DNA of 64,000 nucleotides from Methanotrichaceae archaeon (GTDB taxonomy: Archaea > Halobacteriota > Methanosarcinia > Methanotrichales > Methanotrichaceae): contig CAVVKN010000025.1 in assembly GCA_963748825.1 (NCBI GenBank), positions 1 to 64,000 of the forward strand, in the 5' to 3' direction. Every line of letters starts with the position of its first letter. Within the stretch, counting starts at the first letter, position 1. Positions 10,106 to 41,832 of this stretch are shown piece by piece. The position numbers and the translations under genes are program-made. The notes beneath the pieces were generated by a model. That model did no database searches. It saw only the letters and a program-made list of their open reading frames with translations, and was not told where the DNA came from.

Positions 10106-10106
10106 T

Positions 10107-12493: not shown

Positions 12494-13716
12494 TTCGCAT
12501 TGCCCAGCTCTCCTGCGGTTCGGAGTATAGCGGCATTCAAAAAGAGATTGAGCGCGCTGCCGAAACAGTAGGAGCAAAGATCGTCTATCCTGAGGTATCT
12601 TTGGAGGATATCCTCAACGTAGAGAAAACATTTGGCGTTTCCGTAGCCTCGGGCGACCTCAACTTAGCCATTGCCCGTGCGGTTCGCATCGTGCAGAATC
12701 CGGACCTCGCCGATGCTGTAATTGTCATGACCTGCTTTCGCTGCGCCGAGGCTGCCATCATCCGATCGGAGATCAGAAAATACATTCATGAGCACTCCAA
12801 GATTCCTGTCTTGAGCTACTCCTTCACGGAGAGGACGACGGCAGAGACACTCCTCACCAGGATGGAAGCGCTGGTTACTACCGTCAAGTACCGGGGCCTC
12901 CTGGCTCGCGAGAAGCAGAAGGGTCTTACTGCCGGAATCGACTCCGGGTCCACGACTACCAAATCGGTGGTGATGAGGGATAATGTTGTGATAGGCACCG
13001 GCTGGGTTCCCACGACCGAGGTCTTGAAGAGCGCGGAGGATGCTCTGCAGGCTGCCCTCAAGATGGCTGGCGTACAGAAGGAGGAGGTTTCTGCGATAGG
13101 CGTGACCGGATACGGCCGTTTTCTGGTGGGAAAGCACATCAATGCCAGGCTGATCCAGGAAGAAATCACAGTCAACTCCAAAGGTGCCGTATTTTTGGCT
13201 GATGCCCAGAAGGGGCCGGCAACAGTTATCGATATCGGCGGCATGGACAACAAAGCCATATCAGTGCAGGACGGTATTCCGGGCGGCTTTACCATGGGCG
13301 GAATATGTGCAGGGGCCTCGGGAAGGTTCCTGGAGCTCACAGCCCGCAGGCTCGGCGTCGATATCACAGAGCTGGGAAAGCTGGCACTTAAGGGGGACTT
13401 TCGGAATGTAGCCATGAACAGCTACTGCATAGTATTTGGCACGCAAAGCCTGGTCAACAGCTTATCCATGGGCTGCAAACCTGAGGATGTCGCCATGGCT
13501 GCATGCCATTCTGTGGCCGAGCAGGTCTACGAGCAGCAACTGCAAGAGGTGGAGGTTAAGGAGCCCGTGATCATGGTGGGCGGAACCTCTCTTATCGAAG
13601 GACTGCCCAAAGCCATGGAAGAGCTTCTTCAGGTTAAAGTGACGGTTCCCAAGTATGCTCAGTACATTGGGGCGGTAGGTAGCGCGCTACTCGTGTCGGG
13701 GTTGCTGGAGGACTGA
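12490..13716 (+). CDS. Methanogenesis marker protein 15 (BcrAD/BadFG-type ATPase)
   Basis: [41 protein letters not shown]. Confidence 0.92.
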
Positions 13717-13717
13717 G

Positions 13718-14290
13718 ATGGACCCCATGGAGGTCTTCAGGATTGAGGTCACCGGCCAGGAAGAGTACGCGGCTAAGAAATACCGCGAAATCATCATGGA
13801 CATTTTGCAGGACCTGGGCCTCATCCGGACCATCGGCCGCCTGTATGTTTACGTGGACATACAAAAGCCGTACTTTGCGATGTACGGGCTTCTTCGCTCC
13901 GGAATTCCGCCACTCACAGTAAAGGACGTGGGCGATGTGCTCAAAGTGCAGGGTGGTTATCAGATCAAGATCAATGACGAGGAGCATATGGCGAATCTAC
14001 TCCGGGTGCTATGGGAGCGCTATGGAAGAGAGAGGGTAGAGCAACCGTCAAGGGACATTGTGATCATAGCCTCGGATACATCGCCTTCCGAGCTAATGGT
14101 GGCGGACCTGGAAGCGGAGTTCCTGCAGGACCTGACCGATGCCCTGATTAGAATAGTACCGGAGGGCTTTCGCAATCGGCGCAACATAATGACTAAAGAC
14201 AGCTTTTTTTTCATCGCCGCTGAGGAGAGCTTGACGCCTGAAATTTTATCTGAGATCGAAGGAAAGATCCGGGAGATGGAGAATGCTTGA
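13718..14290 (+). CDS. Methanogenesis marker protein 17
   Basis: Position between markers 15 and 7; YGRERVEQPSR, PEGFR motifs. Confidence 0.85.
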   Translation: MDPMEVFRIEVTGQEEYAAKKYREIIMDILQDLGLIRTIGRLYVYVDIQKPYFAMYGLLRSGIPPLTVKDVGDVLKVQGGYQIKINDEEHMANLLRVLWERYGRERVEQPSRDIVIIASDTSPSELMVADLEAEFLQDLTDALIRIVPEGFRNRRNIMTKDSFFFIAAEESLTPEILSEIEGKIREMENA

Positions 14291-15206
14291 GCCTGTGATG
14301 TTCACGGGAGGCTTGTACAAGCACGACCTGGTCGTGGAGCTGGTAGAAGATCTGGGCGGCTATGTCCTGCAAAAGAATGTCACCCAAACAGAGATCATCC
14401 TTTTGATACTGGTTCCCAGCGAAGATATGGCAGCGCTGCAGGCACTGGCCAAGGAGCTGAGAAGTGAATTGGTGCGCGCGCCGCTGGCCGGAACGGAGGT
14501 GGCGGTAGTAACACCGACGTTGGCCATTCACCATCTGCCACATGTCGCCTGCGATATAGCCGAGTACCTGCGCCGCCATGGTTCAAAGACCAACATGCTG
14601 GGACTGGCCAGGGGCGTCGGTCGCGAAATCGCCCAGATCGATGAGTACGAGACCGCCCTGATAAACGAGCATGATGCCGCCGTATTCATCTTTGGCAACT
14701 TCCAGGATTGCATCAAGAAGAAGGAGAGCTTATACCGAAACATCACCGTGCCGGTGGTGGTCACGGGCGGGCCGCAGATCGAGGCCAAAGAACTTCCCTA
14801 TGCCTTTGACTATGTTCCGGCCATCGGGCGGATGGCTCACCGGTCCAGAAAGGCAACGGAGATTGGATCTTTAGACCGGATCGTCGACGCGGTAGGCAGA
14901 GCTCTGGATAAGACAAGATCCGCCATTGCCAAGGACCCGCTCACCACTTCACCACCCCGCGTCATGGATGCCGTACGTGAGCAGGTGCCGGATGTGGAGT
15001 TCTCCTATTCGCCGCTTCCCATAGCCCTCAATCTGACAGGCGTGCGGGTGAAGCTGCCCTACAATGATTACAAAGATGCAGTAAAAGCTGTAACCTTCGA
15101 CGAAGGTGTGAAGCTTGGCGAGATTGCCACCATCAAGCCGTCGCGCATGAAAGACTATATACTGGTGAGGATATTGTCCGCTTCTGAGACCGGGTTCGTC
15201 TTCTAA
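14283..15206 (+). CDS. Methanogenesis marker protein 7
   Basis: FTGGLYKHD, APLAGTEVAVV, HHLPHVACDIAEYLRR, GLARGVG. Confidence 0.92.
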   Translation: MLEPVMFTGGLYKHDLVVELVEDLGGYVLQKNVTQTEIILLILVPSEDMAALQALAKELRSELVRAPLAGTEVAVVTPTLAIHHLPHVACDIAEYLRRHGSKTNMLGLARGVGREIAQIDEYETALINEHDAAVFIFGNFQDCIKKKESLYRNITVPVVVTGGPQIEAKELPYAFDYVPAIGRMAHRSRKATEIGSLDRIVDAVGRALDKTRSAIAKDPLTTSPPRVMDAVREQVPDVEFSYSPLPIALNLTGVRVKLPYNDYKDAVKAVTFDEGVKLGEIATIKPSRMKDYILVRILSASETGFVF

Positions 15207-18721: not shown

Positions 18722-20245
18722 ATGCGTGGGATCGCTTTATTTGGTAAAATACGTTTTCTAGACACTACCTTACGTGACGGTGAACAGACGCCAGGTGTAT
18801 CACTCGGCATGGATGAGAAGCTCGCCATTGCCCAGGGGCTTGATTCTCTGGGTGTGGATGTGATTGAAGCCGGCTCGGCCATGACCTCAGAGGGAGAACG
18901 CCTATCGATAAAAGCAGTTGCTGATTTTGGCCTCAAAGCGGAGATATGCAGCTACGTTCGAGCTTTGACCGCAGATATTGATACGGCATTAGCTTGCGAT
19001 GTAGATTCCGTCCATCTTGTGGTACCGGTATCGGATCTTCACATCGAGTGCAAGCTCAAATCCGACCGAAAATCGGTGATAAATAAGGCCGTGCAGGTGA
19101 CTGAGTATGCCAAAGATCACGGCCTCATTGTGGAGCTCTCCGGTGAGGATGCCAGCCGTGCCGATCAGGATTATCTGGTCAGCCTTTACATGGCAGGAAT
19201 TGAGGCAGGAGCCGATAGGCTGGCTTTCTGTGATACAGTAGGCGTGCTGGTTCCCGAGGTTACGGGGGATATATTTTCCCGGCTGTCTCAATTGGGCGTG
19301 CCGATCAGCGTCCACTGCCACAACGACTTTGGCATGGCTACCGCCAACACCATAGCGGCTCTTCGCGCAGGAGCGGCCCAGGCGCACGTGACAGTGAACG
19401 GCATAGGCGAGCGAGCCGGTAATGCCAGCCTGGAAGAGGTGGTCATGACCCTGGAATCCCTTTATAAAATCAACACCGGGGTCAAATGCCAGGATATATA
19501 CCAGCTCTCGCGCCTGGTCTCGCGAATGACCGGCCTTCCTATGGCCCCCAACAAGGCCATCGTAGGAGAGAATGCTTTTACCCATGAGGCGGGCATTCAT
19601 GTGCACGGGCTCTTGGCTGATACCAGGACCTACGAGCCGATACATCCGGAGACCGTGGGCAGGAAGAGGCGCATAGTGCTCGGCAAGCATGCCGGTCGGG
19701 CCTCAGTCGAACTGGCCTTGCGCGAGTTCGGACTCCTGGCTTCTGAGCAACAGCTAGCTCAGATAGTGGTCAGGGTAAAAGAGCTGGGCGACAAAGGCAA
19801 GCGCGTCTCTGATGCGGATTTGCAGACCATAGCCGACACCGTGCTCTCCATCCAGATGGAGCCAAAGGTGAAGCTGCAAGAGGTGACAGTGGTGGCCGGC
19901 AATACGGTGACTCCTACGGCCTCGGTGAAGATACTGCTTAACGGGGCTATGAAGCTGGAAGCGGGAACCGGAGTCGGGCCGGTGGATGCGGCCATAAATG
20001 CCATAAGACGGGCCATATCAGACGTGGCGGATGTGCGGCTAGAGGAGTATCATGTAGACGCCATAACAGGCGGAACGAATGCACTAGTAGAAGTATGGGT
20101 GACGATGGCAATGGCAGACAGGAAGATAACGGCTCGAGGAGCTGGCGCGGATATAATCATGGCATCGGTCGAAGCGGTGCTGGAGGGCATCAACCGGCTG
20201 ATGCGGCTGGAAGAGGAGGACAAAGCCAGATGTCTCAAAAGATGA
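18722..20245 (+). CDS. cimA: (R)-citramalate synthase (LeuA/CimA family)
   Basis: [28 protein letters not shown]; upstream of ilv genes. LeuA not fully excluded. Confidence 0.8.
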
Positions 20246-21984
20246 CTGGTGCTCAGGCGGTACTGGAGAGCCTGAAGAGAGAGGGAGTAGATGTAGTATT
20301 CGGGCTTCCCGGCGGTGTGCTGCTGCCTCTTTACGACGCCATCTACCAGTCCGATATTCGTCATATTCTGGTACGTCATGAGCAGGGCGCGGCGCATATG
20401 GCGGATGGATATGCCCGAGCCACGGGAAAGGTAGGAGTATGCATTGCCACCTCCGGGCCCGGGGCCACCAATCTGGTCACCGGCATCGCCAATGCCTACA
20501 TGGACTCCGTACCAATGGTTGCCATCACCGGGCAGGTGAACACCTGGCTGATTGGAAAGGACGCTTTTCAGGAAGCGGATATAACCGGGATCACTCTGCC
20601 CATTACCAAGCACAATTATTTGCTGCGAAGCGCCAAGGATATCACGCGCGTCTTCCGAGAGGCGTTCTACATCGCCCGCACCGGCCGCCCCGGACCGGTG
20701 CTAATTGATCTGCCAAGAGACGTGACCGTGGATGAGGTAGAGTTTTCCTGGCCGGAGGTGGATCTGCCCGGCTATCGCCCTTCCGTTAAGGCACATGAGA
20801 TGCAGATCAAGAAAGCTGCCAAGGCCTTGATGGAGGCGGAAAGACCCGTCATTTACGTGGGCGGCGGAGTGAAGTATGCCGGCGCGCACCGCGAGCTCAT
20901 CGAGCTGGCGATAAAGATCAACGCCCCGGTTACTACTACTCTCATGGGGTTGGGCTGCTTTCCTGAGGACCATCCTCTCTCGCTGGGCATGCTGGGCATG
21001 CACGGCACAAAGTACGCCAACTACTCCATTCAGGAGTCGGACCTCATTTTGGCGATCGGTGCGCGATTTGATGATCGGGTAACGGGAAAGATCTCCAGCT
21101 TTGCGCCGCGGGCCAAGATCGTTCATATCGATGTGGACCCGGCCGAGGTGGGCAAGAATGTGCGAGTGGACATTCCCGTGGTGGGGGATGCGAAAAATGC
21201 CCTGGAAGGACTCCTAAAAGAGGTCAGCCCCAAAGGTAGGAGCGAATGGAATGAGAAGACAGAGGCCTGGAAGAAGGACTATCCTCTGCGCTACATTCCG
21301 GATATGAATGTCATCAAGCCGCAGTATGTGATTGAGAAGCTGTGCGAGATCGCACCTGACGCCATCATCACCACTGAGGTGGGGCAAAACCAGATGTGGG
21401 CGGCACAGTTCTTTGTTCATAAGGACCCGCAAAAGTTCATATCCTCGGGGGGCCTGGGCACAATGGGATACGGCTTTCCAGCGGCCATTGGAGCCAAGAT
21501 GGGGCGGCCGGAATGCGATGTCATCGACGTGGCCGGAGACGGAAGCTTCCTCATGAACAGCCAGGAGCTGGCGACGGCGGTCGTTAACGACATTCCCGTG
21601 AAGGTGGCGGTGCTCAACAACGGCTGCCTGGGCATGGTTCGGCAGTGGCAGGAGCTGTTCTTCGAGAAGAGGTACTCGGCAACCATTCTGGGCCGCACCA
21701 GCCCTGATTTCGTGAAGCTGGCCGAGGCCTACGGAGCAGTGGGCCTGCGGGCCACCAAGCCCTCTGAGGTCGAATCGGTCATTCGTGCAGCAATGGCGAC
21801 AGACAGGCCTGTTGTCATGGACTTCATAGTCAATCCGGCGGAGAAGGTCTCGCCAATGGTTCCGGCGGGAGCTACTCTTAGCGAAATTCTGGAGCTGGAG
21901 TGGTGTGATGCTGAACAATCCTGCCATCTGGAGAAGATTTATGCCCAAGGCAGGAAGGAAATCCTCGGTCAGGAGGGGTTCTAG
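20230..21984 (+). CDS. ilvB: Acetolactate synthase large subunit
   Basis: [31 protein letters not shown]; ATG at 20230 overlaps cimA end. Confidence 0.95.
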
Positions 21985-22476
21985 ATGAAGCACACCATAG
22001 CCGTCATTGTGGAGAACAAGTCTGGTGTTCTGACGCGCATCGCCGGCCTCTTCAGCCGCAGGTCCTTTAACATCGACAGCCTCTCGGTGGGAGCGACAGA
22101 CAATCCCGATTACTCGCGCATGACCATCACTGTGCATGGTGACAGGGACGTGCTGGAGCAGGTCATAAAGCAGCTCTCCAAGCTCATCAACGTCATTCGC
22201 GTCAGCGAGCTGGAACCGGGCGAGTCCATAGAAAGGGAGCTGGCCATAATCAAGGTGAGCGCGGACAAAGAGAGCCGAAGCGAGATCATGCAGATTGTGA
22301 ACATCTTCCGCGCCAAGATCATCGATGTCTCGCACCGGTCCATGATCATCGAGGTTACGGGAGATGAGGAGAAGATCGATGCCATGGTTCAACTGCTGCG
22401 CCAGTTCGGCATAAAGGAAATGGCCCGCACCGGGAAGGTATCGATGGTGAGGGGCGCGAGGGTAATCAAGGCTTGA
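21985..22476 (+). CDS. ilvN: Acetolactate synthase small (regulatory) subunit
   Basis: VENKSGVLTRIAGLFSRRSFNIDSL ACT domain; EMARTG. Confidence 0.95.
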   Translation: MKHTIAVIVENKSGVLTRIAGLFSRRSFNIDSLSVGATDNPDYSRMTITVHGDRDVLEQVIKQLSKLINVIRVSELEPGESIERELAIIKVSADKESRSEIMQIVNIFRAKIIDVSHRSMIIEVTGDEEKIDAMVQLLRQFGIKEMARTGKVSMVRGARVIKA

Positions 22477-22556
22477 GGATTCGAGGGCTGCCTGACAAAA
22501 AGACATCCCTCGAATCCATTATTTTTTGCGATTATTATTAATTGGAGGAATGAAAT

Positions 22557-23552
22557 TTGGTGAAGATATACCATGAAAAGGATGCAGATTTGAGGGTGTT
22601 GAAGGACAAGACCATCGCCATAGTGGGATGGGGAAATCAAGGCCATGCCCAGGGAGAGAACCTGAAGGACTCCGGGCTGGATGTCATCGCTGCCGACCTG
22701 CCGGGCTCCAATGCCTGGAAGAGGGCGGAGGCGGACGGCGTGAAGGTCATGTCCGTGGCCGACGCAGCCAAGAAGGCGGACTACATTCAGATCTTACTGC
22801 CCGACGAGTACCAGGGCAAGATCTACAGGGAGCAGATTGCGCCCTACTTAGAGGAGGGCGATGTTCTGGGATTTTCGCATGGCTTTAACATTCGCTACTT
22901 CCAGATAGTGCCGCCCGAGAACGTGGACGTGGTCATGATAGCGCCCAAGGGCCCGGGCGATCTGGTGCGCAGAACATACCAGGAAGGCAAGGGCGTGCCC
23001 TGTCTGGTGGCCATAGAGCAGGATGCCTCCGGATCGGCTCTGAAGAAGGCGCTGGCCTATGCCAAGGGCATCGGCGGCACACGGGCCGGTGTGATTGAGA
23101 CCACCTTTACCGAGGAGACGGAGACCGATCTGTTCGGCGAGCAGGTGGACCTGTGCGGCGGCGTGACGGAAATGATCAAGGCCTCCTTTGAGACGCTGGT
23201 GGACGCCGGCTACCAGCCGGAGATCGCCTACTTCGAGGCCTGCCATGAGCTGAAGCTGATTGTGGACCTGATCTACGAGGGCGGATTCATGCGCATGTGG
23301 AACAATGTCTCCAACACAGCAGAGTACGGTGGCATGACCCGTGGCCAGAGGATCATTAACGAGGAGTCACGGGCAGAGATGCAGGAAATTCTGGCAGAGA
23401 TCCAGTCCGGCGAGTTCGCTCGTGAGTGGATTTTGGAGAGCCAGGCTGGTCTGCCTGTTAAGAAGTCTCTGGAGAAGATGGAAGCCGAGCACCCTATAGA
23501 GAAGGTGGGAGCGGAGCTGCGGGCCATGATGCCGTGGCTGCAGAAGAAATAA
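22557..23552 (+). CDS. ilvC: Ketol-acid reductoisomerase
   Basis: [32 protein letters not shown]. Confidence 0.97.
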
Positions 23553-27942: not shown

Positions 27943-28848
27943 TTATTGATAATGAGCATCAAATGCATCTCTTAAACTAAATGGGGCTAATTTGTTCTCA
28001 ATCCAGAGAATAAATTCATAAGATAATTTTATATAATCACCTAACTCCTCGGAAGAGAATCTAATTTCTTTACGCAAATCGTCGTGACCTCTATGGATTA
28101 TTAAATGTCGCTTCTTAATTAGTTTAAGCAATTCATTCTTTCTGGGATATTCTAAGAGGTCAAGGCCAAATGCTTTTATGTACATATGTTTTGTTCGTCC
28201 ACTTATATCATGATATGGAAATAATAAGAGGGTTTCAAAAATTATTTTCTCCATTTTGCTAAAATAATCAGATGGCGTTATATTCACGCCGCTACGCCAT
28301 CTTCTTGGCATATCTTCATCTAGATTTTCTACAAATTTTTTAAATAATTCCGGGTCATATTCAAGCGTTTTCTTTAATCGATCCTCAAGAAATACTTCAA
28401 TATTTGTTATTATTCTAAGAAATATGAATATTTTGATTTCATCCGACAAATCATGGCTCGATAACTGTCCACTTTTTAATTTTTGGCATTTGATTTCGCA
28501 AAATACTTCCGCCCATATATTTTCAATTTTCTGTTTGATTTTTATTATTTGCTCATCTGGAGTAATAACCATTTGTTGGAAGTTATCAAATTTAATTCTT
28601 TCCAATTGAGGCAATATAGTTAATATTTCACATATTTTTTCTATATCTTTGAAGAAACGATAGATGGGCTCCTTATCTTTGATCATTAATTCACTCAAAT
28701 TCGCATTAATAAAACAACTTAAGCGATCATCATTAGGGATTTCCTCTTTCATTGATTTTGACAATTTTTCGAAATTCTTTAGCGTTTCCTCGTCCACTTC
28801 AATTTCCACGGTATGCTTTTTAGAACTATTTGTTTGTTTATATGTCAT
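27943..28848 (-). CDS. AT-rich hypothetical protein with probable C-terminal HEPN domain
   Basis: 301 aa, low GC; IEVFLED and KRHLIIH (RxxxxH). Confidence 0.55.
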   Translation of the reverse strand: MTYKQTNSSKKHTVEIEVDEETLKNFEKLSKSMKEEIPNDDRLSCFINANLSELMIKDKEPIYRFFKDIEKICEILTILPQLERIKFDNFQQMVITPDEQIIKIKQKIENIWAEVFCEIKCQKLKSGQLSSHDLSDEIKIFIFLRIITNIEVFLEDRLKKTLEYDPELFKKFVENLDEDMPRRWRSGVNITPSDYFSKMEKIIFETLLLFPYHDISGRTKHMYIKAFGLDLLEYPRKNELLKLIKKRHLIIHRGHDDLRKEIRFSSEELGDYIKLSYEFILWIENKLAPFSLRDAFDAHYQ

Positions 28849-29276
28849 AGTATCTCCAAATTATTGTTTTATCAATTGATATTACTATAATTTTTATCTT
28901 ATGACATCAATATTAGCACCAATCCCACTTTCCACCAGTTCTTGATTTAGCACGATGTAATAGCATAACGACCATTTTCAGAGCACATTCAACCTCAACG
29001 TGTATTTCTATAAGCCCATACCATTCCAATACAGTATCCTGAAGATATTTCAAACCTCTCATTTTCAATATCATTTATATCGACTGGTCATAAATTGCTC
29101 AGAGTGCTAAAGTGCGCATTTGAACCATACTCGAAGTGCTCGCTTGTGATATTGTGATCTATTGTGATCCGATGGATGGACAGAAACGCGGATCACATTC
29201 TGGTAGCTCATTCCGCCGAGCAACTCAGAAGGCTGCATGCTCCTGTACTGCAGGCACTCGAATAGATGTGCATGCT

Positions 29277-29405
29277 AGGCCCGATTGGCGAGCGACCGCA
29301 ACCCCAGACAGCCCAGCCCACAGGCGGCAGGCACGAGCGCAGCCGGGAGCCGGGCAAAGTGAGTCATCTAACGAGCGTGAGCCGGGTGCCGGGAAAAGTG
29401 AGTCT
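29277..29405 (+). repeat. GC-rich inter-cassette repeat copy 1 with internal tandem duplication
   Basis: AGGCCCGA...GCAACCCC...GCACGAGCGCAGCCGGGAGCCGGGCAA; the GCCGGG.GCCGGG.AAAGTGAGTC unit occurs twice. Confidence 0.8.
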
Positions 29406-29486
29406 ATCTGCAAATCCCTGGAAGATTGACCGGATTTCTGGGAAGATGGGAAGCGAAAGGCTATAATCTTATCACTGCTGATAACC

Positions 29487-29750
29487 ATGTTAATGTTTGG
29501 AGAATACATCTTGGCGGCTATGGAAAGGGCCACCTACGAAATCATCGATGACCCTAAGCCCTATTATGGCGAGGTTCCCGAACTGCAGGGTGTTTGGTCA
29601 ACAGGTAAAACTCTTGAAGAATGTCGTAAGGAACTACAGAGCGTAATCGAGGGCTGGATTGCTTTAAAGCTGAGACTGGGTCATCCTATACCTGCAATAG
29701 GCGGATATGTTATTAATGCGTCTGCGGAGCCTGTCTCCATTGTCGAATAA
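29487..29750 (+). CDS. hicB: HicB-family antitoxin
   Basis: YYGEVPELQGVWSTGKTLEEC...IEGWI...IP. Confidence 0.88.
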   Translation: MLMFGEYILAAMERATYEIIDDPKPYYGEVPELQGVWSTGKTLEECRKELQSVIEGWIALKLRLGHPIPAIGGYVINASAEPVSIVE

Positions 29751-29964
29751 ACTTTTGCCGGTTTCAAGACGTGAGCTGATTAAGCGATTGAGTAAATTGG
29801 GTTTTGTCGGTCCTTATCCCGGAGCAGATCATGAGTATATGTCCAGAGGACTGGTAGAGGCGCGCATTCCCAATCCTCATGGCAGCAATATCAGTGTGGA
29901 TCTATTGCAGAGAATTCTGAAGCGAGCTGGAATCAGTCGCGAAGAATGGTTTGATGTAGCATAA
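29740..29964 (+). CDS. hicA: HicA-family toxin (TTG start overlapping hicB)
   Basis: SRRELIKRLSKLGF.GP..GADH..M, IPNPH, LLQRILKRAGISREEW. Confidence 0.88.
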   Translation: MSNKLLPVSRRELIKRLSKLGFVGPYPGADHEYMSRGLVEARIPNPHGSNISVDLLQRILKRAGISREEWFDVA

Positions 29965-29966
29965 TT

Positions 29967-30220
29967 CTTTGTGCCTTCGTATCTTTGCGGTTAGTCGTAG
30001 CTGTTATGTTATAATTGTGCACTAATATTAATAACGAACCGAAGGCATTGCTTTCCTAATCCTACGCTCAGAAAAACCGCATCATTCGGAGTCCAGCTCA
30101 TCCTGGCTCTCAGGCCCGACCAGCCTACCGCCCCTGAGTATGGAGCGTTTGTCGGGCAATCCAGCCCACCCTGACAACCACGCAGCAACCCCGGACGGCC
30201 CGGCCCAAAGGCCACGAGCC
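29967..30220 (+). repeat. Inter-cassette repeat copy 2
   Basis: TGCGGTT..CGTAGCTG..GTTATAATT, CTCAGGCCCGACC, AATCCAGCCC, CGCAGCAACCCCGGACGGCCCGGCCC. Confidence 0.8.
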
Positions 30221-30313
30221 ACGGATGAACTGCTCAGATCGGATACAAACACCTCTTGCACCAAAAGGGGCAACGTTTTTAGGGATGTAACACCTCTATT
30301 CTATGGGTTGAAT

Positions 30314-30595
30314 ATGGATATCCTCGACATTATCAAAAGCCACGCCAATGATATCAAGATCCTTTTTAGCGTCAGGCGAATCGGTATCTTCGGATCCTTC
30401 GCCCGTGGTGAGCAGAAGGATTCCAGCGATGTTGATATACTGGTGGAATTTGAGAAGCCCACATTTAAAAACTTCATGAACCTTTCATTCTACCTGGAAG
30501 ATCTCTTGGAAAGAGAGGTGGATCTGGTCACCGTAAAAGGACTTCACCCGCGCATCCGGCCTTACGTGGAGAAGGATGTGATCTGGTCTGAATAA
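30314..30595 (+). CDS. Minimal nucleotidyltransferase (MNT) antitoxin
   Basis: GIFGSFARGEQ..SDVDILVEF, VDLV; ATG at 30314. Confidence 0.9.
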   Translation: MDILDIIKSHANDIKILFSVRRIGIFGSFARGEQKDSSDVDILVEFEKPTFKNFMNLSFYLEDLLEREVDLVTVKGLHPRIRPYVEKDVIWSE

Positions 30596-30917
30596 AGACG
30601 TAGAGCTACTGGGACACATCCTTGAAGAGATGGATTTCATTGCAAAGTATTGTGCTGTCGTTGGCATAGAGACGTTGATGGCAGATGAAGTTCTCCGCAG
30701 AGCCTGCGTGAAATCCTTGGAGATCATTGGAGAGGCATCCAGGAATATCTCAGATGATTTGAAAACGGCGCACCCAGAGATTCCATGGAGACAGATGATC
30801 GGCATGAGAAACAAGCTGGTTCACCATTACTTTGGAGTGGACTGGGAGATCGTGAATGATGCCCTTAAAAATGAGCTTCCAGAGATAAAATTAAAACTGG
30901 CGAAAATATTAATATAA
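30588..30917 (+). CDS. HepT/DUF86 HEPN ribonuclease toxin (start probably CTG at 30588)
   Basis: LEIIGEA, IPWRQMIGMRNKLVHHYFGVD (RX4HXY). Confidence 0.9.
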   Translation: MNKDVELLGHILEEMDFIAKYCAVVGIETLMADEVLRRACVKSLEIIGEASRNISDDLKTAHPEIPWRQMIGMRNKLVHHYFGVDWEIVNDALKNELPEIKLKLAKILI

Positions 30918-30919
30918 AC

Positions 30920-31475
30920 TCTCAGGCCCGACCGGCCTCCTGCCCGCCCTGACGACAACGCAGCAACCCCGAACGGCCCGGACCACATGCGTCGGCCACG
31001 AGCGCAGCCGGGAGCCGGGCAAGGGAGCCACGTTCGAGCGGCTACCGGGCGCTGCTGCCCACAGCCCCGCAAGGATGACGATGCTGGAGACAACCTTGAA
31101 GTCTGCCAAAACGTCTCTGTGCGCTTCTCGCACCTCTGCGTTTTTCTTCTCGTAACCTCATATTTTACTTCTCCCGCTACGATTATTAACCGCAGAGCCG
31201 CAGAGTTCGCAGAGCCTCGCAATCTACTTATTTGTCTACACTTGAAAAAAAAGTGTACTGTGTCTGAGCAATAGTCGTCTCCGTCCGTTCGTCCTCCGCG
31301 TGCTCTGCGCCTCTGCGGTTCGATCCGTAGCTGCTAGGTTATAATTTTCATCTAATGATAATAGGAAACGGCGATCGTTTCCCAAAATCCAGCCCGCTCT
31401 GACAACAGCGCAGCAACCCCGGACGGCCCGGCCCGAGGACAGCAGGCACGAGCGCAGCCCGAGGCGAGAGGCAGA
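30920..31475 (+). repeat. Inter-cassette repeat copy 3 (longest; contains inverted-repeat element 31188-31320)
   Basis: Aligns by eye with 32982-33390 over several blocks, e.g. CCGGGCGCTGCTGCCCACAG, GCTGGAGAC, TCTCTGTGCG, TGATAATAG, AAAATCCAGCCC. Confidence 0.85.
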
Positions 31476-31525
31476 CGGGCGAGCTGCAGAAAAATCTTAT
31501 ATACTTTTAGGATAAACATTATCTT

Positions 31526-31750
31526 ATGTCAACTTCTGTTTATAGCGTTCGCATTGAAGATCGTATACGCCGGATGATGGATGAGATGTCTGATGTCAAT
31601 TGGCAGGGAGAGATCAAGCAAACCGTGGAGAGAATGGTTCGGGAAAAGAAGAAAGAAAGGCTCCTGGCCGAGGCTCAGGAACTGTGGAAGCATCAAGAGC
31701 CCAATGCAATCGGTGCTGCGGAGATGATACGGGAGGATCGAGATGCTTGA
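31526..31750 (+). CDS. VapB-like (RHH-type) antitoxin
   Basis: SVRI N-terminal strand, VNW, AAEMIREDRDA tail; overlaps PIN gene. Confidence 0.8.
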   Translation: MSTSVYSVRIEDRIRRMMDEMSDVNWQGEIKQTVERMVREKKKERLLAEAQELWKHQEPNAIGAAEMIREDRDA

Positions 31751-32153
31751 TAAGGTAGCTTTGGATTCAAATATCCTGGCATCTATGTTTTTCAAAGAGG
31801 ATGCCTCTCAAAGAGCTCTGGATGCAGTCACCAAACCGGATTTGATCACTCTGGACCTGGCAGTGATTGAGGTTGGAAACGTTGCCTGGAAACAGGTGAC
31901 TCTATTCGGGAAGGACAGGGATCTAACTCTCAATGCTCTGCAGAAATGCCAGACATTTATCTCCGAGGCGTGCGATGTCGTCAGAGCGCAGGATATGATG
32001 GCGAAGGCATATGATATCTCGATTGTTACTACAGCGTCCTTTTATGATTCCCTCTTTTTAGCCCTGGCAGAAAAAGAGCAAGTCCCTCTATTGACTTTGG
32101 ATAAGAAACTGTACAATAAAGCTAATTCTTCATTTAATGTGCAATTGATTTAG
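31743..32153 (+). CDS. vapC: VapC/PIN-domain toxin
   Basis: LDSNIL, EVGNVAWK, FYDSLFLALA, LLTLDKKL. Confidence 0.9.
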   Translation: MLDKVALDSNILASMFFKEDASQRALDAVTKPDLITLDLAVIEVGNVAWKQVTLFGKDRDLTLNALQKCQTFISEACDVVRAQDMMAKAYDISIVTTASFYDSLFLALAEKEQVPLLTLDKKLYNKANSSFNVQLI

Positions 32154-32199
32154 CGTGCATGATTGAGATGTCGTGAAGTTATTGGAATCTAATGTGGCC

Positions 32200-32250
32200 T
32201 CACCTGGCTCCTCAGGCCCGACCGGCCTCCTGTCCCGAGCGCAAGCGAGA
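32200..32250 (+). repeat. Inter-cassette repeat copy 4 (short)
   Basis: CCTGGCTCCTCAGGCCCGACCGGCCTCCTG...GAGCGCA. Confidence 0.7.
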
Positions 32251-32372
32251 GTGCAGTTCATGCCCGAATGAAATTGTATTTGATTTCTCTACTCAATGGA
32301 GAATTGCTCATCAAGACCCAAAGGTTAAATGCCTTAAACAGTATTTTAGATTCATAAAACAGGTGCATTTTA

Positions 32373-32597
32373 ATGAGCGGCGGGGTGCATTCATTGAGCT
32401 TTCAGGATCTAATCGAAGCTGTAGAGTCCATGCCTCTGGAAGATCAGTCCATGCTGGTCGAGCTGATCAACAAACGCATCATAGAGAAACGCCGGGCCGA
32501 GCTGGTAGCTGAAGTCCAGGATGCTAGGAGTGCGTTCAAAAGAGGCGAGGTTAAACGGGGCACATTTGAAGACCTGATGAAGGATCTGTTAGATTGA
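32373..32597 (+). CDS. Putative antitoxin
   Basis: Small helical protein overlapping RelE-type gene; GEVKRGTFEDLMKDL tail. Confidence 0.75.
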   Translation: MSGGVHSLSFQDLIEAVESMPLEDQSMLVELINKRIIEKRRAELVAEVQDARSAFKRGEVKRGTFEDLMKDLLD

Positions 32598-32878
32598 ATA
32601 CTCTTGTCTGGAGCCCTGGCTTCAAAAGATCCTTCAAGCACTCAATACGACGCAGGCCTGATCTGCAAGAGAAAATTGAACATGCACTGAAACTGCTCGC
32701 TACTGATCCACAACACATCTCTCTTCATACTCATAAATTGAAAGGGGACTTGGCAGGTTCTTGGGCTTGTACGGTCGACTTCGAATATCGCATAGTATTT
32801 GAGTTCGTGCGAGATCCAAAGACTCAAGAAGAGATCATCCTGCTTGAAGCAGTGGGCACGCATGATGAAGTCTACTAG
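32594..32878 (+). CDS. RelE/YafQ-like mRNA interferase toxin
   Basis: FKRSFK, LHTHKLKGDLAGSWAC, YRIVF, VGTHDEVY. Confidence 0.88.
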   Translation: MNTLVWSPGFKRSFKHSIRRRPDLQEKIEHALKLLATDPQHISLHTHKLKGDLAGSWACTVDFEYRIVFEFVRDPKTQEEIILLEAVGTHDEVY

Positions 32879-32981
32879 TTTCAAGCCCTCAAATGTATTA
32901 GCTAATAGTAACTGAAAATCGCCACCATTTTAGAATTCAGCCCTTGAAAAGCTGCTTTACTTTATCCCATCTCGATGTGAC

Positions 32982-33390
32982 TTCAGGGCCGACTGGCCTC
33001 CCGCTCTCCCGAGCACGAGTGCGTACGTACGGTCCACCTGTCGGACGATGCCGCCCCCCAGACGGCGCGGCCCACGGGCGACGGCCCCGAGCGCAGCCGG
33101 AAGCCGGGCAAGTCAGTCACGGTCGAGCGGCAGCCGGGCGCTGCTGCCCACAGTCCCGCATGGATAGAAAGGCTGGAGACTGCCAGGAATTCTTTTCAAA
33201 AGTCTCTGTGCGTCCTCTGTGCGCTCTGTGTCTCTGTGGTGGGATCGTTGGTTGTTCTGGTATAATTTTCTGCTTATGATAATAGCAAACTGCCATCGTC
33301 TCTAAAATCCAGCCCACGAGCACGCGCGTGCGGACAGGTCAGCCTGGCGGAAGGCAACGCAGCCCCGCAAGGCCCGGCCACGGACGGCGG
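32982..33390 (+). repeat. Inter-cassette repeat copy 5
   Basis: Homologous to copy 3 as listed there. Confidence 0.85.
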
Positions 33391-33477
33391 ACATTTTAGC
33401 GAAACTTAGGTGTAAGACAAGAGCAGCTTCAAAGGCTAATAAGAGCGAAAGGCTTTATCTGATCAGGGATAACAATT

Positions 33478-33741
33478 ATGCTGATGTTTGCGGAGTACAT
33501 TAAAGCGGCAATGGATAAAGCGACCTACGAGATAATCGACGATCCTGAGCCCTTTTATGGTGAGATTCCTGAGATTCAGGGCGTATGGGCGTCAGGAAAG
33601 ACGCTTGAGGCTTGTCGGGACGACCTTATGAGTGCTCTCGAAGATTGGATAGCGTTCCGCCTTAGGACAGGAAGATCTATTCCCTCGATCGGTGGAACTT
33701 CAATTTCCGTCTCATCGGAGCCGATTAGCGTTGTCGAATAA
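33478..33741 (+). CDS. hicB: HicB-family antitoxin, paralog of 29487-29750
   Basis: Same length (87 aa); MLMF.EYI.AAM..ATYEIIDDP...EP.S.VE. Confidence 0.88.
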   Translation: MLMFAEYIKAAMDKATYEIIDDPEPFYGEIPEIQGVWASGKTLEACRDDLMSALEDWIAFRLRTGRSIPSIGGTSISVSSEPISVVE

Positions 33742-33855
33742 ACTTACTCCCGTTTCCCGACGTGAGCTTGTAAGACGATTGAGGAAATTAGGATTTGATG
33801 GCCCTTATCCAGGATCTAAACATGAGATCATGGCCAAAGGAGACATATCTATCTA
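33731..33855 (+). pseudogene. hicA: 3'-truncated HicA toxin
   Basis: SNKLTPVSRRELVRRLRKLGFDGPYPGSKHEIM, then loses IPNPH and C-terminal helix at ~33850. Confidence 0.8.
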
Positions 33856-34138
33856 TCAAGCTCTGCGGTCTCCCAGACTTGTTTGATGTCAATTCCAAAG
33901 TACTGATGCACGAGAATGTTCCTTAAGCCTACAATGTCGGCCCAAGGAATATCCTGATTGCATTCCGTCAAATCATCTGACAGGTGATTCGAAGCTTCGC
34001 CAATCACCTGAAGATGATGAATTATCCAGACTTGCGTTCGTTCGTCTTCGGCATAGGCCTGATAGCCAATAGAACATACTTCCCAATCTTTTCTATGGCC
34101 TCGTTAATATCACGCAGCCGCTCCTTGTCATCCCTCAA
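33850..34138 (-). pseudogene. HepT/DUF86 toxin, frameshifted and 3'-truncated
   Basis: RDDKERLRDI...; LQVIGEA...IPWADIVGLRNILVHQYFGID in a shifted frame; ends at the hicA junction. Confidence 0.8.
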
Positions 34139-34426
34139 AGGGGCACCGCCTCGCTCAGGACTCTGTCTCGAATTCGCTCTCGCAGGCCACGGTCACTAAC
34201 TACATCGACCTTGATTTTCAGTAGGGATTCAAGCTCTCGGATCATGGCGGAATGGCTAAGCAAAGTTGCGCCTGGAATAAACTCTACCAGGATATCGAGA
34301 TCGCTCTTTGAGTCTGCCTCTCCTCTGAGCAACTGAGCCAAAGATCCTGACATTGCGAGCGCCATGCTTTGCAGCAATCTTTAGAATCTCCTCTCGCTTT
34401 TCATTCCGGAGATCTTCAATACGCAT
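34135..34426 (-). pseudogene. MNT antitoxin with frameshift near 34328
   Basis: [33 protein letters not shown] / [16 protein letters not shown]...VDVV. Confidence 0.85.
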
Positions 34427-34554
34427 AAATTATTATCTGCCGTTCAAGAAGATCAAAGCTTCGATCCAGATGGTTGCGTTGCATAGCGGCGACATCTCTT
34501 TCCAAAGAATCCCGACACCAGGAAAGACCCTTATCAGGCCCCAGCTCTACCTGA

Positions 34555-34680
34555 ACCTCAGGCCCGACCGGGCCTCTGCCCCCGATTGCTAGCGCTTGCC
34601 AAGTAATCCAGCCCGCCCTGACGAAAACGCAGCCCAGGCTGGGCCCCACGGGCGGCAGGCCACGAGCGCAGCCCGAGGCG
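34555..34680 (+). repeat. Inter-cassette repeat copy 6
   Basis: CTCAGGCCCGACCGGGCCTC, AATCCAGCCCGCCCTGAC, GCCACGAGCGCAGCCCGAGGCG. Confidence 0.8.
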
Positions 34681-34820
34681 TGCGATGTCGTCAGAGCGCA
34701 GGATATGATGGCAAAGGCATATGATATCTCGATTGTTATCTTCATTTAATGGGCAATTGATTTAGCATGCATGATTGAGATGTCGTGAAGTTATTGGAAT
34801 CTAATGTGGCCTCACATGGC
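34673..34820 (+). pseudogene. Internally deleted second copy of vapC 3' part and downstream flank
   Basis: Near-identical to 31963-32028 joined to 32127-32208. Confidence 0.9.
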
Positions 34821-34997
34821 ACATATAACTAATATTATATAAACACTAGGATATAATGTGCCCTGCCACCATCACTAACTAATGCGATTGTGCCATTGAT
34901 TGTTGATATCCTGTATATTTTCTTTACTAAACTCCGTTTTGTGCGGTCATTTTATCTATCATGAAAAGAATATTGTTCTCAATGAGCGTGTAACGAC

Positions 34998-35396
34998 ATG
35001 ACTGAAACAATCGTAGAATCAATATTTGGCGTGAATGCTGGTGCCGTATGGCGAGCACTTAATCAAAATGGTCCAAGCAACATTGGCGATCTTGTGAAAA
35101 CTACATCCATGAGCCGTGAAGAAGTCTATGGTGCTCTTGGGTGGCTTGGTCGCGAGAACAAGATCGCCATAGAGAAGCGCGGACGGGCAATTGTATTCTC
35201 ATTACGAGAGTCAGAAGGACGTTCGGAAGCATCTAAGGGCAAAACAATAGGAGATTCTGTGCTACAAGAGCAAACAACGCATCATACAAGAGTTCTGCCA
35301 AAGAAGACCACAAAAGCAAAAAAGACTGCAGAAGCTCGCAAGGTCAAAGCCCCGCTCAAACAAAGCGAAAGGAGCGATGAATTTCTACTTCATTAG
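34998..35396 (+). CDS. DUF2582-like winged-helix protein with Lys-rich tail
   Basis: GVNAGAVWRAL...YGALGWLGRENKI. Confidence 0.85.
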   Translation: MTETIVESIFGVNAGAVWRALNQNGPSNIGDLVKTTSMSREEVYGALGWLGRENKIAIEKRGRAIVFSLRESEGRSEASKGKTIGDSVLQEQTTHHTRVLPKKTTKAKKTAEARKVKAPLKQSERSDEFLLH

Positions 35397-35498
35397 TTGT
35401 TATACTTGCTACAATTAGGGTGAAAGCTGCGGGCAAACAGGAGACAGAGCGCATGGTGACTTCCAATTTCGCCAGGCAAAATATCGAAATGTTTCACA

Positions 35499-35792
35499 AT
35501 GCAGTCTCGATTGCATAGCAGGAAGAAGAATAAGGTTCAATCTGAAACATGGAGGCGTATGTATAGTAAAATTAGCAATTTTGCCCGCATGAAATATGTC
35601 CTCATCGCCATTCTTCTGTTCCTCATTGGGTTGGTCCTGATGCTGACATTCTTCCTGATGATTACAGTACCTTTTGCTCTAGCAGCTTGGGCCTGGGGAG
35701 GGATATTCCTTTACCTAGCCGCAATGAGAAGACCTTACAGCGACTTTGCTGCAACATTAAGATGGCATAAATCACGCAAAAAATATGTGTAA
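35499..35792 (+). CDS. Small two-TM membrane protein
   Basis: Hydrophobic hairpin with basic flanks; start uncertain. Confidence 0.5.
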   Translation: MQSRLHSRKKNKVQSETWRRMYSKISNFARMKYVLIAILLFLIGLVLMLTFFLMITVPFALAAWAWGGIFLYLAAMRRPYSDFAATLRWHKSRKKYV

Positions 35793-39730: not shown

Positions 39731-40015
39731 TCATCCACCGATGGCCGCGGGAAAAAGGGCCACTTCACTCCCTTCGACCAGGAAAGTCTGCAAACCTCGC
39801 AGGTTGGAGATGTTCTTGCCCGCCACAAAAACATTTACGTCCTCCCGCAAATCCTCGCCGCTAAATAACAGTGGGCGAAGGGCAGGACGAGAGGCACAGA
39901 GTGCTTCCAATAGGTCCAATACAGTCATATCCCTTGCTTCTTCTCCCAGCTCGACCTGCATTTCCTTTCCTAGAACATGGCGAAAGCCGGCAAAAGAGAT
40001 GACTTTAACTTTCAT
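39731..40015 (-). CDS. MoaD/ThiS-family ubiquitin-like sulfur carrier
   Basis: MKVKVISFA start; C-terminal ALFPAAIGG; overlaps tfuA end. Confidence 0.88.
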   Translation of the reverse strand: MKVKVISFAGFRHVLGKEMQVELGEEARDMTVLDLLEALCASRPALRPLLFSGEDLREDVNVFVAGKNISNLRGLQTFLVEGSEVALFPAAIGG

Positions 40016-40655
40016 CTGCCATTCTCCGAACTTGCTCCAGGGCCTGCAATGCATCCTCCATCTTGAAGTCCCGCTTCTCCCTGGCCAAGAATTCGCGAAA
40101 ACGCTGCAACTCTTTTTCCGCCACCATTGCTCCTGCATCCGAAAGCATGCGCTCATAGGTCCTTTCTGGAAAGTATCGGGCCTCTGCGCAATGAAAGAGC
40201 CGATCTTTGCAGGAAGCGCTAATTACACCCATCTGCCAGGCTAAATCCAAATTGAAGCGAATGTTCACCAGCGGCTCGGACCTGGGCTCCCAGGAGAAAG
40301 GATCAAAGATGAGAGCCACTTCGTCATCCGAGACCAGATGGCCACTCTTGTAAGCCTGGTAAATTTTGCCTATGCCCTCCATGCCGTAAATGTCCAGCTC
40401 CGCGGCACGCAAGGCTCCCATGCTGGAGGCGCCCAAGACCTTTGCCCCCGTCTCCAAGGCATAGATTACCTCCTTATGAGCCACGGAGCATTCCTGAAAG
40501 AAGACGCCATCGATGAGCAGAATGATCCCTGCTCCCTCCTTGGCTGCCAGATAGATGTCTCCTCTCTTAGCGGGAGGCCGGAAGTCTGCCTCTAAAATCT
40601 GCTGCGCCCTAGCTCTGGAGAGGCTTGGCCCTAGGAAGACGACTATTCCTGGCAT
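40005..40655 (-). CDS. tfuA: TfuA-related McrA-glycine thioamidation protein
   Basis: VFLGPSL, PPAKRGD, IDGVF, GASSMGALRAAEL, SDDEVAL, SEPLVNIR. Confidence 0.92.
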   Translation of the reverse strand: MPGIVVFLGPSLSRARAQQILEADFRPPAKRGDIYLAAKEGAGIILLIDGVFFQECSVAHKEVIYALETGAKVLGASSMGALRAAELDIYGMEGIGKIYQAYKSGHLVSDDEVALIFDPFSWEPRSEPLVNIRFNLDLAWQMGVISASCKDRLFHCAEARYFPERTYERMLSDAGAMVAEKELQRFREFLAREKRDFKMEDALQALEQVRRMADES

Positions 40656-41832
40656 TTCTGCGGGCATCTTTGCACCTTTTTCCCACCCTTTCCGGATCCA
40701 CGGCCGCGATCTCAAGTCCTGGCACAATCACCCTGACCACAGGAATGCCTATCTCCTCGCGAGACAGGTCAACTACCACTACGCGATCGAGGCCAGCCTC
40801 TTCCAGCTTCTTTAGCATATATCTTATGTCCAGCAGGAAGTCATCGCTCTCAAAGGACGCAATATCAGCAAAGCTCTTCGTGTCGGTTGCTTCAAACCAG
40901 TGCTTGTTAAGCCTCTTGGTCCTGTCGTAGCCGATCTGCTTCCTAAAATCGGCAAGTACTGTATCCTCTCTCGCCCCGTGGATCTGGGTGAGGCGGCTTT
41001 GCGCCACCTCAGTGAGGGCGCGAAGCACTGCCACGCCGGCACTGGTGTGTGTGCCCATGCCCGTGGTGAGAAGGGTTGGATCGCGCAGCCGCACATCATC
41101 GGCCGCGGCCGCGCAGGTTGGAACGCCAATGTCGCTGGTGATATCTCTAAGATAGACATCCACCTCGGCTGCCGCGAATTTATCGAGGAGTCCTTTTGCC
41201 GGGTCGTCCTCCACATCACTGATTATGGGGCAGACTTTGCGCGTCGCCTCCACCAGGGCCCAGGCATCTCTTTCTATAACCTCGGCCAGGCCGTGGAATA
41301 TTGCCTCTTCAATCACATTGCCCGAGGCCAAACCACTGGTATTGGTGCGAAAGAGGCGTTTATAATCGGATGGCAGGGGATGAAAAACCGCATTTGCCGG
41401 AATTAAAATCTCCTCATCGTTCATTATGTCCCAGCCTGTAGTCCAGGGTATCATAGCATCCGGCTCCGCACCCGCGGGCAAGATCAACTCGCTTGGGTCC
41501 AGCGCCCCGTCTAAATGGGAGAAGCAGTCGATTTTGAGCTCTCTGTCTCGCACCTCAGCCGAGTAGCGCTCCAGGCCCTCCATCATGGCCGATACTTTGG
41601 CCTCGGTGGGTGTAGCTCCTTTTCCGTTGTAGACGGAAATGGCACCTCGATCGGCCATGGGCCGGATGGAAGAGAAGACGGGGATACCGATTCGGTCCAG
41701 GTTGGTTATGTCCGCCACTCTGGTGATCCCAGCGGCGGGCAATTTGGCCTCGGCGCGCTTTAGCGTCTCCTCTGGTGGCAGAGCCCGGTGGGTATCGTCT
41801 TTGTATTTTTTTATGCAGGACGCTAGTCTCAT
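40609..41832 (-). CDS. ycaO: YcaO-related McrA-glycine thioamidation protein (methanogenesis marker 1)
   Basis: GITRVADITNLDRIGIP, MEGLERYSAE, GLASGN, EVIERDA, TEVAQSR. Confidence 0.93.
   Translation of the reverse strand: MRLASCIKKYKDDTHRALPPEETLKRAEAKLPAAGITRVADITNLDRIGIPVFSSIRPMADRGAISVYNGKGATPTEAKVSAMMEGLERYSAEVRDRELKIDCFSHLDGALDPSELILPAGAEPDAMIPWTTGWDIMNDEEILIPANAVFHPLPSDYKRLFRTNTSGLASGNVIEEAIFHGLAEVIERDAWALVEATRKVCPIISDVEDDPAKGLLDKFAAAEVDVYLRDITSDIGVPTCAAAADDVRLRDPTLLTTGMGTHTSAGVAVLRALTEVAQSRLTQIHGAREDTVLADFRKQIGYDRTKRLNKHWFEATDTKSFADIASFESDDFLLDIRYMLKKLEEAGLDRVVVVDLSREEIGIPVVRVIVPGLEIAAVDPERVGKRCKDARRNARNSRLPRAKPLQS

Follow-up and report, generated by a model that had tools for sequence, protein, structure and literature searches.

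A repeat-punctuated array of toxin–antitoxin cassettes in a Methanotrichaceae archaeon and related arrays across the genus Methanothrix

The window analysed here, a 64,000-nucleotide stretch from a Methanotrichaceae archaeon (positions 1 to 64,000 of contig CAVVKN010000025.1, assembly GCA_963748825.1; contig C25 of the genome that we call G000), carries between 29.25 and 34.82 kb an array of small toxin–antitoxin (TA) cassettes separated by copies of a non-coding repeat. Coordinates are those of the window unless another locus is named. An earlier note, made from the DNA letters, had described six TA modules and a vapBC relic at this place, and open reading frame (ORF) listing together with Pfam and NCBIfam searches confirmed all of them where the note had put them, as six type II TA modules and one vapC relic. 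The cassette proteins score above the curated cut-offs for HicB/HicA, MNT/HepT, VapB/PIN and YafQ-RelE, and by sequence the cassettes qualify as type II TA modules, with small neighbouring genes for an antitoxin and a toxin from known families.

The repeat is GC-rich, C-rich, modular and non-coding. It was defined by repeat finding, MAFFT alignment and a profile hidden Markov model (HMM; nhmmer, E-values of 1e-19 to 1e-38 in the window), and the HMM detects seven copies in the array, to which a divergent one is added; all lie on the plus strand. The composite repeat begins at the left with a c-half that includes an AT-rich box; next come the motif AATCCAGC and segment x, then module a, whose core is CTCAGGCCCGACCGGCC. 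A spacer and the motif AAGCCAGCC lead on to module b, with the core CCCGGACGGCCCGGCCC, and a tail closes the unit. Individual copies may be complete or reduced to a alone or b alone, or they may have a fused straight to b, with fusion points that differ. The earlier description of a GC-rich repeat before, between and after the modules, always in plus orientation, was borne out, but that of a single repeat family was not, the c part belonging to a separate, dispersed family. This element c is palindromic, about 130 nt long and present at about 40 dispersed sites of the genome, with CTCTGTG heptad-like arms around a GGTTATAACC centre, and the TA-array repeat incorporates halves of it. It lies in the window at 31130-31372 and 33205-33307 and elsewhere, for example, at G000:C3:121245-121659, C9:220808-220926 and C10:171150-171272; it looks like a family of the MITE (miniature inverted-repeat transposable element) or REP (repetitive extragenic palindrome) type. 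From left to right, the array contains the following features.

29251-29399, plus strand: repeat copy 1, a degenerate a fused to b and the start of the tail (HMM 80-239); left edge of the array
29487-29964, plus strand: hicB-hicA cassette 1, with HicB at 29487-29750 (Pfam UPF0150, 1e-32) and HicA at 29707-29964 (HicA_toxin, 1.7e-7)
29966-30226, plus strand: inter-cassette unit of c-half, x, a, spacer and b, including repeat copy 2 at 30057-30226
30314-30917, plus strand: MNT-HepT cassette, with MNT at 30314-30595 (NTP_transf_2, 2.9e-15) and HepT at 30630-30917 (HepT-like, 2.2e-26)
30866-31063, with tail to 31123, plus strand: repeat copy 3, a joined straight to b (HMM 9-240)
31130-31372, plus strand: gene-less unit with a complete palindromic c element, arms at 31188-31214 and 31294-31320
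31373-31469, plus strand: repeat copy 4, with b alone, which meets the c element at the motif AATCCAGCC
31526-32153, plus strand: vapB-vapC cassette, with vapB at 31526-31750 and vapC/PIN at 31743-32153 (PIN, 8.7e-10)
32189-32247, plus strand: repeat copy 5, x remnant and a only (HMM 40-98)
32373-32878, plus strand: untyped 74-aa ORF in the antitoxin position (32373-32597) and YafQ/RelE-type toxin (32594-32878)
32930-33153, plus strand: repeat copy 6, a, b and tail, followed by a c-half at 33205-33307
about 33300-33385, plus strand: repeat copy 7, divergent and b-like, below HMM detection and found by repeat and sequence comparison
33478-33886, plus strand: intact hicB2 at 33478-33741 (UPF0150, 1.9e-31) and 3'-truncated hicA2 at 33692-33886
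33849-34426, minus strand: inverted, decayed HepT-MNT cassette, with HepT truncated and MNT frameshifted into the overlapping frames 34135-34377 and 34256-34426
34509-34687, plus strand: repeat copy 8, a, spacer and b, running into the vapBC leader (HMM 12-197)
34673-34820, plus strand: terminal vapBC relic (vapC parts) with two internal deletions, the first junction being 8 nt, CCGAGGCG, common with the vapBC leader

Some of these assignments call for detail. The open frame of HepT at 30630-30917 begins farther upstream, VapB matches NCBIfam NF050799 with 75.3 bits against a cut-off of 60 (E-value 4e-21), and the toxin at 32594-32878 matches both YafQ_toxin (1.5e-7) and ParE_toxin (7.4e-5) of Pfam. 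Compact operons had been claimed for all six modules, but the last two, hicBA2 and the inverted MNT-HepT, are decayed. The hicA2 gene codes for 64 aa without a Pfam match, its counterparts in relatives having 85-92 aa, and is fused tail to tail near 33850 with the inverted HepT gene, of which an ORF at 33849-34007 and a HepT match at 33861-34070 are found; as the earlier note had observed, this is the sole junction without a repeat. The inverted HepT and MNT genes have intact counterparts of 113 and 96 aa, respectively, at two repeat-bearing loci of relatives (L015 and L017), and metagenome contigs differ from the window by single-base indels in MNT, at 34326 and 34328. Because relatives hold intact genes and the metagenome contigs differ by 1-nt indels, the last two modules are regarded as decayed. 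The relic at 34673-34820 is 96-98% identical to 31963-32028 and 32127-32208 of the intact vapBC cassette region.

The TATA-like boxes that had been placed just upstream of several starts stand as AT-rich boxes, located near 29461 for hicBA cassette 1 and near 31497 for vapBC. Such boxes lie 22-29 nt upstream of the start codon in 6/6 aligned vapBC copies and 4/4 hicBA copies (one of them substituted), and they appear promoter-like.

Scatter of the repeat through ordinary intergenic regions had been named as an observation that would count against a cassette system. Modules a and b are not scattered: they occur at only four loci in the 2.88-Mb assembly, each adjoining TA genes.

C25: the array described above
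C18, 58.8-62.7 kb: six minus-strand copies
C10, near 200.1 kb: one copy
C21, about 62-63.3 kb: two copies

The association is one-way: the repeats adjoin TA genes, and only 7 of the 36 HepT, HicA and PIN matches in the genome are at repeat loci, with 29 elsewhere. Comparison with other genomes, one per species, showed that a 281-nt repeat copy has matches in 36 of the 58 further species compared within the genus and that none of 46 genomes from 15 sister genera of the family has one; several near-complete genomes of the genus are also without a match. Among 185,579 species genomes, an exact 23-mer from module a was matched 20 times, always in records titled Methanothrix, Methanotrichaceae or uncultured Methanosarcinales, and it has no match in IMG/VR or PLSDB. 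The repeat thus appears to be restricted to the genus Methanothrix. A viral or plasmid carrier was considered and rejected, the lone 19-mer match being a chance one in coding DNA of 66% GC without an HMM match.

Across the genus we compared 36 repeat-bearing loci, which were taken because of their BLAST matches and so are no random draw. In these the HMM detects 251 copies, of uniform orientation within the locus in 35 of the 36. Among the 215 intervals between copies, 95 are shorter than 250 nt and 120 are longer (median 716 nt); Pfam-typed TA genes lie in 90 of the 120 intervals of at least 250 nt and belong to MNT/HepT, HicAB, DUF4258 with an MqsA-like partner, VapBC, DUF3368 with UPF0175, TumE and RelE. 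Seven further intervals hold a recurrent, untyped pair of 173-aa and about 96-aa proteins, which occurs at L001:7005-7834 (G000:C18) and in the arrays L028, L029, L030, L032, L034 and L036 and has no Pfam or NCBIfam family. In the ESM Atlas, the pair matched only unnamed clusters (bacterial for the 173-aa protein) and gave one low-recognition match; it is a candidate new TA-like pair. The typed cassette genes are oriented as the repeat in 134 of 202 cases and opposite to it in 68, and polarity is fixed for each cassette lineage: vapBC follows the repeat in 9/9 cases, and DUF3368 and TumE each oppose it in 7/7. Each cassette, a self-contained two-gene module, bears the end of module b upstream and module a downstream. 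Arrays can also carry cassettes other than TA modules, since at L003:5295-6098 (G000:C21) and at L016:9005-9667 and 10890-11162 a gene with an acylphosphatase domain stands between two repeat copies.

Invariant cassette order among relatives, which likewise would have spoken against a cassette system, was not found, as both order and content differ at the same chromosomal site and in metagenome contigs. Arrays lie downstream of ilvBNC in five species, which makes this site an orthologous hot spot, and their cassette sets and orders all differ.

G000 (studied genome): HicBA, MNT-HepT, gene-less unit, VapBC, RelBE, decayed HicBA2 and HepT-MNT, terminal VapBC relic
G020: HicBA, MNT-HepT, VapBC
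G012: HicBA, inverted DUF4258/MqsA pair, inverted HepT-MNT, VapBC
G006: RelBE, inverted DUF3368/UPF0175 pair, inverted HepT-MNT, HicBA2, VapBC
G101: MNT gene, VapBC

The gene-less unit at 31130-31372 is missing between the same two cassettes in G020. Sediment metagenome contigs contain other cassette joints, all of them within repeats, which link MNT-HepT to HicBA2 or to RelBE or have lost the gene-less unit (joints 30945>31386 and 30986>31447). The studied array has the look of a G020-like array joined to a G006-like array, in which case the ancestral terminal vapBC would have been degraded through deletion across the 8-nt microhomology. In the G012 array (L015), a block of about 1 kb with several repeats and no genes is present twice, at 10100-11104 and 12893-13911, with ends in the tail and in module a; because the two blocks are 95.5% identical, with 300-nt stretches at 100%, they are taken as the product of a recent intra-array duplication. 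The vapBC cassette itself is 95.9-98.2% identical to copies at eight other loci, as compared with 90.7-94.1% for ilvC and 90.9-94.5% for ilvN between species, and the repeats that flank it are far more divergent than vapBC. This points to recent exchange between species, with strong purifying constraint as the alternative.

The limits of what travels with a cassette are best seen for vapBC, where linked sequence has its 5' limit near HMM position 172, where b ends, and its 3' limit near 85, where a ends; the zone between the two limits is linked to neither neighbouring cassette. Over all loci, the end points of high-scoring segment pairs (HSPs) are scattered, with a modest 3' peak at HMM 81-90 and a common peak at 111-120. 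Very recent events were too few to give exact junctions, as only two HSPs among the loci have at least 97.5% identity over at least 250 nt. The motif CACGAGCGC, suggested as a core crossover site by the boundaries of vapBC, hicBA and MNT-HepT, was rejected, since copies end mainly near HMM 191-200 and 231-241 and where the motif first occurs its conservation is only moderate. Across many species, the conservation profile of the repeat shows sharp blocks of 12-20 nt between variable stretches. Copies are 78% identical in module b within an array and 75% between genomes; with so little gain in likeness inside an array, the repeat family is old and not homogenised.

The earlier note had called the array integron-like. 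The cassette-like part of that description stands, given the co-orientation of the repeats and the variable order, and membership in the integrons does not. As the note had stated, there is no integrase in the window; a PF00589 search of the whole genome gave two Phage_integrase matches (C20 and C5), both fragments of about 115 aa. No recombinase lies within the window or is common to the flanking ORFs scanned around the 36 arrays, nor does a recombinase or HUH/RAYT transposase that tracks the repeat, which the note had thought worth looking for, recur beside them. The attC sites of integrons have paired cores, R'' (RYYYAAC) and R' (GTTRRRY), 40-150 nt apart, and fold as an imperfect hairpin. 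The statement that the repeats are not canonical attC sites was upheld, with no attC core pair on either strand of 29200-34900 (0.98 +/- 1.5 in shuffled sequence) and no conserved hairpin by RNAalifold on 27-120 copies of both strands with RNA and DNA parameters (0 to -4.5 kcal/mol). The array is not an integron: it has no IntI, no attC cores and no conserved hairpin.

Other identities for the repeat were also tried and dropped. A structured RNA or attC-like hairpin found no RNAalifold helix on either strand and no Rfam match (Rfam 15: none at E<=1 in 28500-35500, none at E<=0.1 in L015 and L001). A coding repeat does not agree with conservation that lacks 3-nt periodicity (1.13, 1.15 and 1.21) and with indels mostly of 1 nt. 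A G-quadruplex is not a defining feature, the canonical motif (loops up to 7) being found in 17 of 251 copies and in none of the studied array.

The locus is a member of a family of repeat-punctuated cassette arrays that appears limited to Methanothrix, and we propose, with even confidence, that the repeats serve as portable recombination substrates, probably through host recombination. At the DNA level, exchange within the common a-spacer-b zone would duplicate, delete, reorder and swap cassettes, within an array, between arrays and, after DNA transfer, between species, and microhomology-mediated deletions would add to these changes. The machinery would most likely be the general recombination apparatus of the host rather than a dedicated recombinase of the integron type, and TA addiction, possibly together with defence functions, would retain the arrays. 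The make-up of the array, the limitation of the repeat to the genus and to arrays, the co-orientation of its copies, the variable cassette order at the orthologous site, the higher conservation of cassettes than of housekeeping flanks and the lack of attC sites and of an integrase are shown by the sequences, and both recombination in the repeats and the machinery are what we infer. General or microhomology-mediated recombination is favoured because cassette boundaries are graded and non-coincident, HSP ends are spread, a-b fusion points vary, the L015 array contains a duplication, the relic has an 8-nt deletion junction and no recombinase is encoded in cis.

Several points weigh against this proposal. 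The copies are only about 75-78% identical, even within an array, and would be a poor substrate for RecA/RadA-type recombination, and the conserved 12-20-nt blocks look like the result of selection for protein-binding sites, as one might see in a site-specific system or with a regulatory role. At two module junctions stands the motif AA(T/G)CCAGC, with hybrid junctions there, which could mark a defined crossover point. Recombination is read from comparison, and the metagenome joints come from contigs matched at 90% likeness, so that they may be from other strains or species. A flanking recombinase could have been missed because many arrays stop at contig ends. Nor does the proposal account for how TA modules of unrelated kinds came by common flanks in the first place.

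Low copy identity, conserved blocks and the recurrent AA(T/G)CCAGC motif are the reasons why a site-specific system stays a rival. In an integron analogue, which we think unlikely, the a-spacer-b unit of about 100-240 nt would be an att-type site for a recombinase encoded elsewhere, and cassettes would be excised as circles and reinserted at other repeats. Such an analogue would agree with co-orientation at 35 of 36 loci, the fixed polarity of each cassette lineage, blocks conserved without concerted evolution despite about 75% overall identity, and the hybrid junctions at the recurring motif, as well as with the same cassette in arrays with different flanks, the second, relocated vapBC copy inside the studied array and gene-less units that resemble empty cassettes. 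However, a full-length tyrosine recombinase was not found in the genome, where the two short fragments and a degraded Y1 transposase gene are present, the flanks of the 36 loci have no recombinase in common, the 5' and 3' cassette limits fall at different repeat coordinates, and conserved secondary structure of the attC kind is absent. In its fullest form, which we regard as doubtful, this would be a Methanothrix cassette-exchange system integron-like in action and unrelated to integrons, with a modular att-like site of about 240 nt (a, b, the conserved blocks and AA(T/G)CCAGC) cut and rejoined by a recombinase encoded elsewhere; if so, TA and defence cassettes would move between several chromosomal arrays and between species. 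The conserved blocks would also suit a cis-regulatory or transcribed element, whether a promoter-like box in the c-half ahead of a C-rich leader (or of a non-coding RNA), or an insulator or platform for binding by which the array is silenced, with cassette variation as a by-product. Transcriptional function would entail co-orientation, the c-half AT-rich box is followed by an x-a-b body that is 93-100% conserved within one array, and contigs from RNA libraries (about 90-99% likeness) cover parts of the array including cassette genes, although they may reflect DNA carry-over and show neither strand, ends nor level, and we draw no claim of expression from them. Against it stand the absence of conserved RNA structure on either strand and of any Rfam match even at relaxed E-values, the 68 of 202 typed cassette genes opposite to the repeat, the many partial copies (a only, b only or fused) and the promoter-like boxes of the cassettes themselves, because of which the repeat would not be their promoter; we consider this quite unlikely. 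A selfish, non-autonomous transposable element, a MITE or a derivative of the insertion sequence (IS) family IS200/IS605 that happens to insert between TA genes, is very unlikely in our view. The hallmarks of a MITE, palindromy and dispersal (about 130 nt, about 40 places), belong to element c alone; modules a and b have no inverted arms, terminal inverted repeats or subterminal hairpins by repeat analysis and consensus folding, and never occur outside the four TA loci of the genome, and their orientation is uniform at nearly all loci. Partial and nested copies would be in keeping with transposition, as would genes for IS200 tnpA, tnpB, IS21 or DDE transposases in or beside L017, L015, L016 and L028; these genes occur at single loci and accompany a minority of the arrays, however, an intact IS200 tnpA adjoins only 1 of 36 (L017), and the only PF01797 match (Y1 transposase) in the genome is broken by 2-5 stops.

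Apart from its mechanism, the family of repeat-punctuated arrays can be set against known systems. Sedentary chromosomal integrons and CALINs, that is, attC clusters without an integrase, have been reported in Archaea too (PMC9668308), and they resemble the studied arrays in their small cassettes, co-oriented repeats, prominent TA modules, order that varies among relatives, chromosomal location and frequent lack of an adjacent integrase. The studied repeats differ in being about 100-330 nt long, conserved in sequence and not in structure, without R''/R' cores or a hairpin, and limited to one archaeal genus; moreover, the genome has no IntI gene by PF00589 search, the cassettes have their own promoter-like boxes and boundaries do not fall at one point. 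The Xer-dependent pdif modules of Acinetobacter plasmids are also separate units, in many cases TA pairs, that are shuffled without an integrase of their own and presumably by host recombinases acting at repeated bounding sites, and they are the nearest case of module shuffling that lacks an integrase. Unlike pdif sites, which are short Xer sites of alternating orientation on plasmids, the studied repeats are long, all direct and chromosomal. Repeats of the REP, bacterial interspersed mosaic element (BIME) or MITE type are likewise non-coding, lineage-specific, modular and intergenic, and element c behaves in this way, being dispersed and palindromic, whereas modules a and b keep to TA arrays and are uniformly oriented and non-palindromic. 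TA and defence islands contain similar clusters of HicAB, MNT-HepT, VapBC and RelBE, at several of our loci beside SIR2, OLD-TOPRIM with UvrD, STAND, GmrSD and HD-CE genes, but ordinary islands have no common punctuating repeat. In the literature open without subscription, a search for toxin-antitoxin, repeat, integron or MITE in connection with Methanothrix or Methanosaeta gave no account of the repeat or the arrays.

To our knowledge, integrons are so far the only well-understood platform for ordered arrays of swappable gene cassettes, and the archaeal examples known to us rely on IntI and on attC sites of the canonical kind. In the present case, a genus of acetoclastic methanogens of global importance has the same array logic with a different, genus-specific and unstructured repeat and without an integrase. 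If recombination at the repeats is real, the arrays would be either convergent cassette arrays kept by host recombination or the product of a new pair of recombinase and site. Either outcome would provide a tractable marker with which to follow how TA and defence genes change at strain level in methanogenic communities, as well as a pool of uncharacterised two-gene cassettes.

Defence-type genes adjoin about 10 array loci, namely SIR2_2, OLD-TOPRIM with UvrD, STAND/NACHT, GmrSD, HD-CE and RelA/SpoT. A defence or addiction role of the arrays is plausible; the antiviral role proposed in the earlier note is only suggested by the defence-type genes next to several loci. In two other species, a gene for an OLD-type AAA_15 and TOPRIM nuclease and a UvrD-helicase gene adjoin the arrays (L031:16232-18061 and L032:5330-7417), and the pair resembles Gabija. 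The second array of the studied genome, on C18, is flanked by genes at L001:7-4339 (a weak Baseplate_J-like match, a 725-aa protein and DUF6519/DUF4815), a cluster that is possibly phage-tail-like, and by a gene for a 508-aa SIR2_2 protein (L001:8886-10412).

Finally, the island that contains the studied array has core genes on both sides, among them mcrC, leuA, ilvBNC, nadA and ycaO, which are placed in the window as follows.

14283-15206: mcrC
18722-23552: leuA/ilvBNC
39731-41832: YcaO gene, next to a gene of the ThiS family

A kilobase of 30.5% GC immediately upstream of the array holds an ORF of 301 aa without a family on the minus strand (27943-28848); this stretch at the edge of the array looks like foreign DNA.

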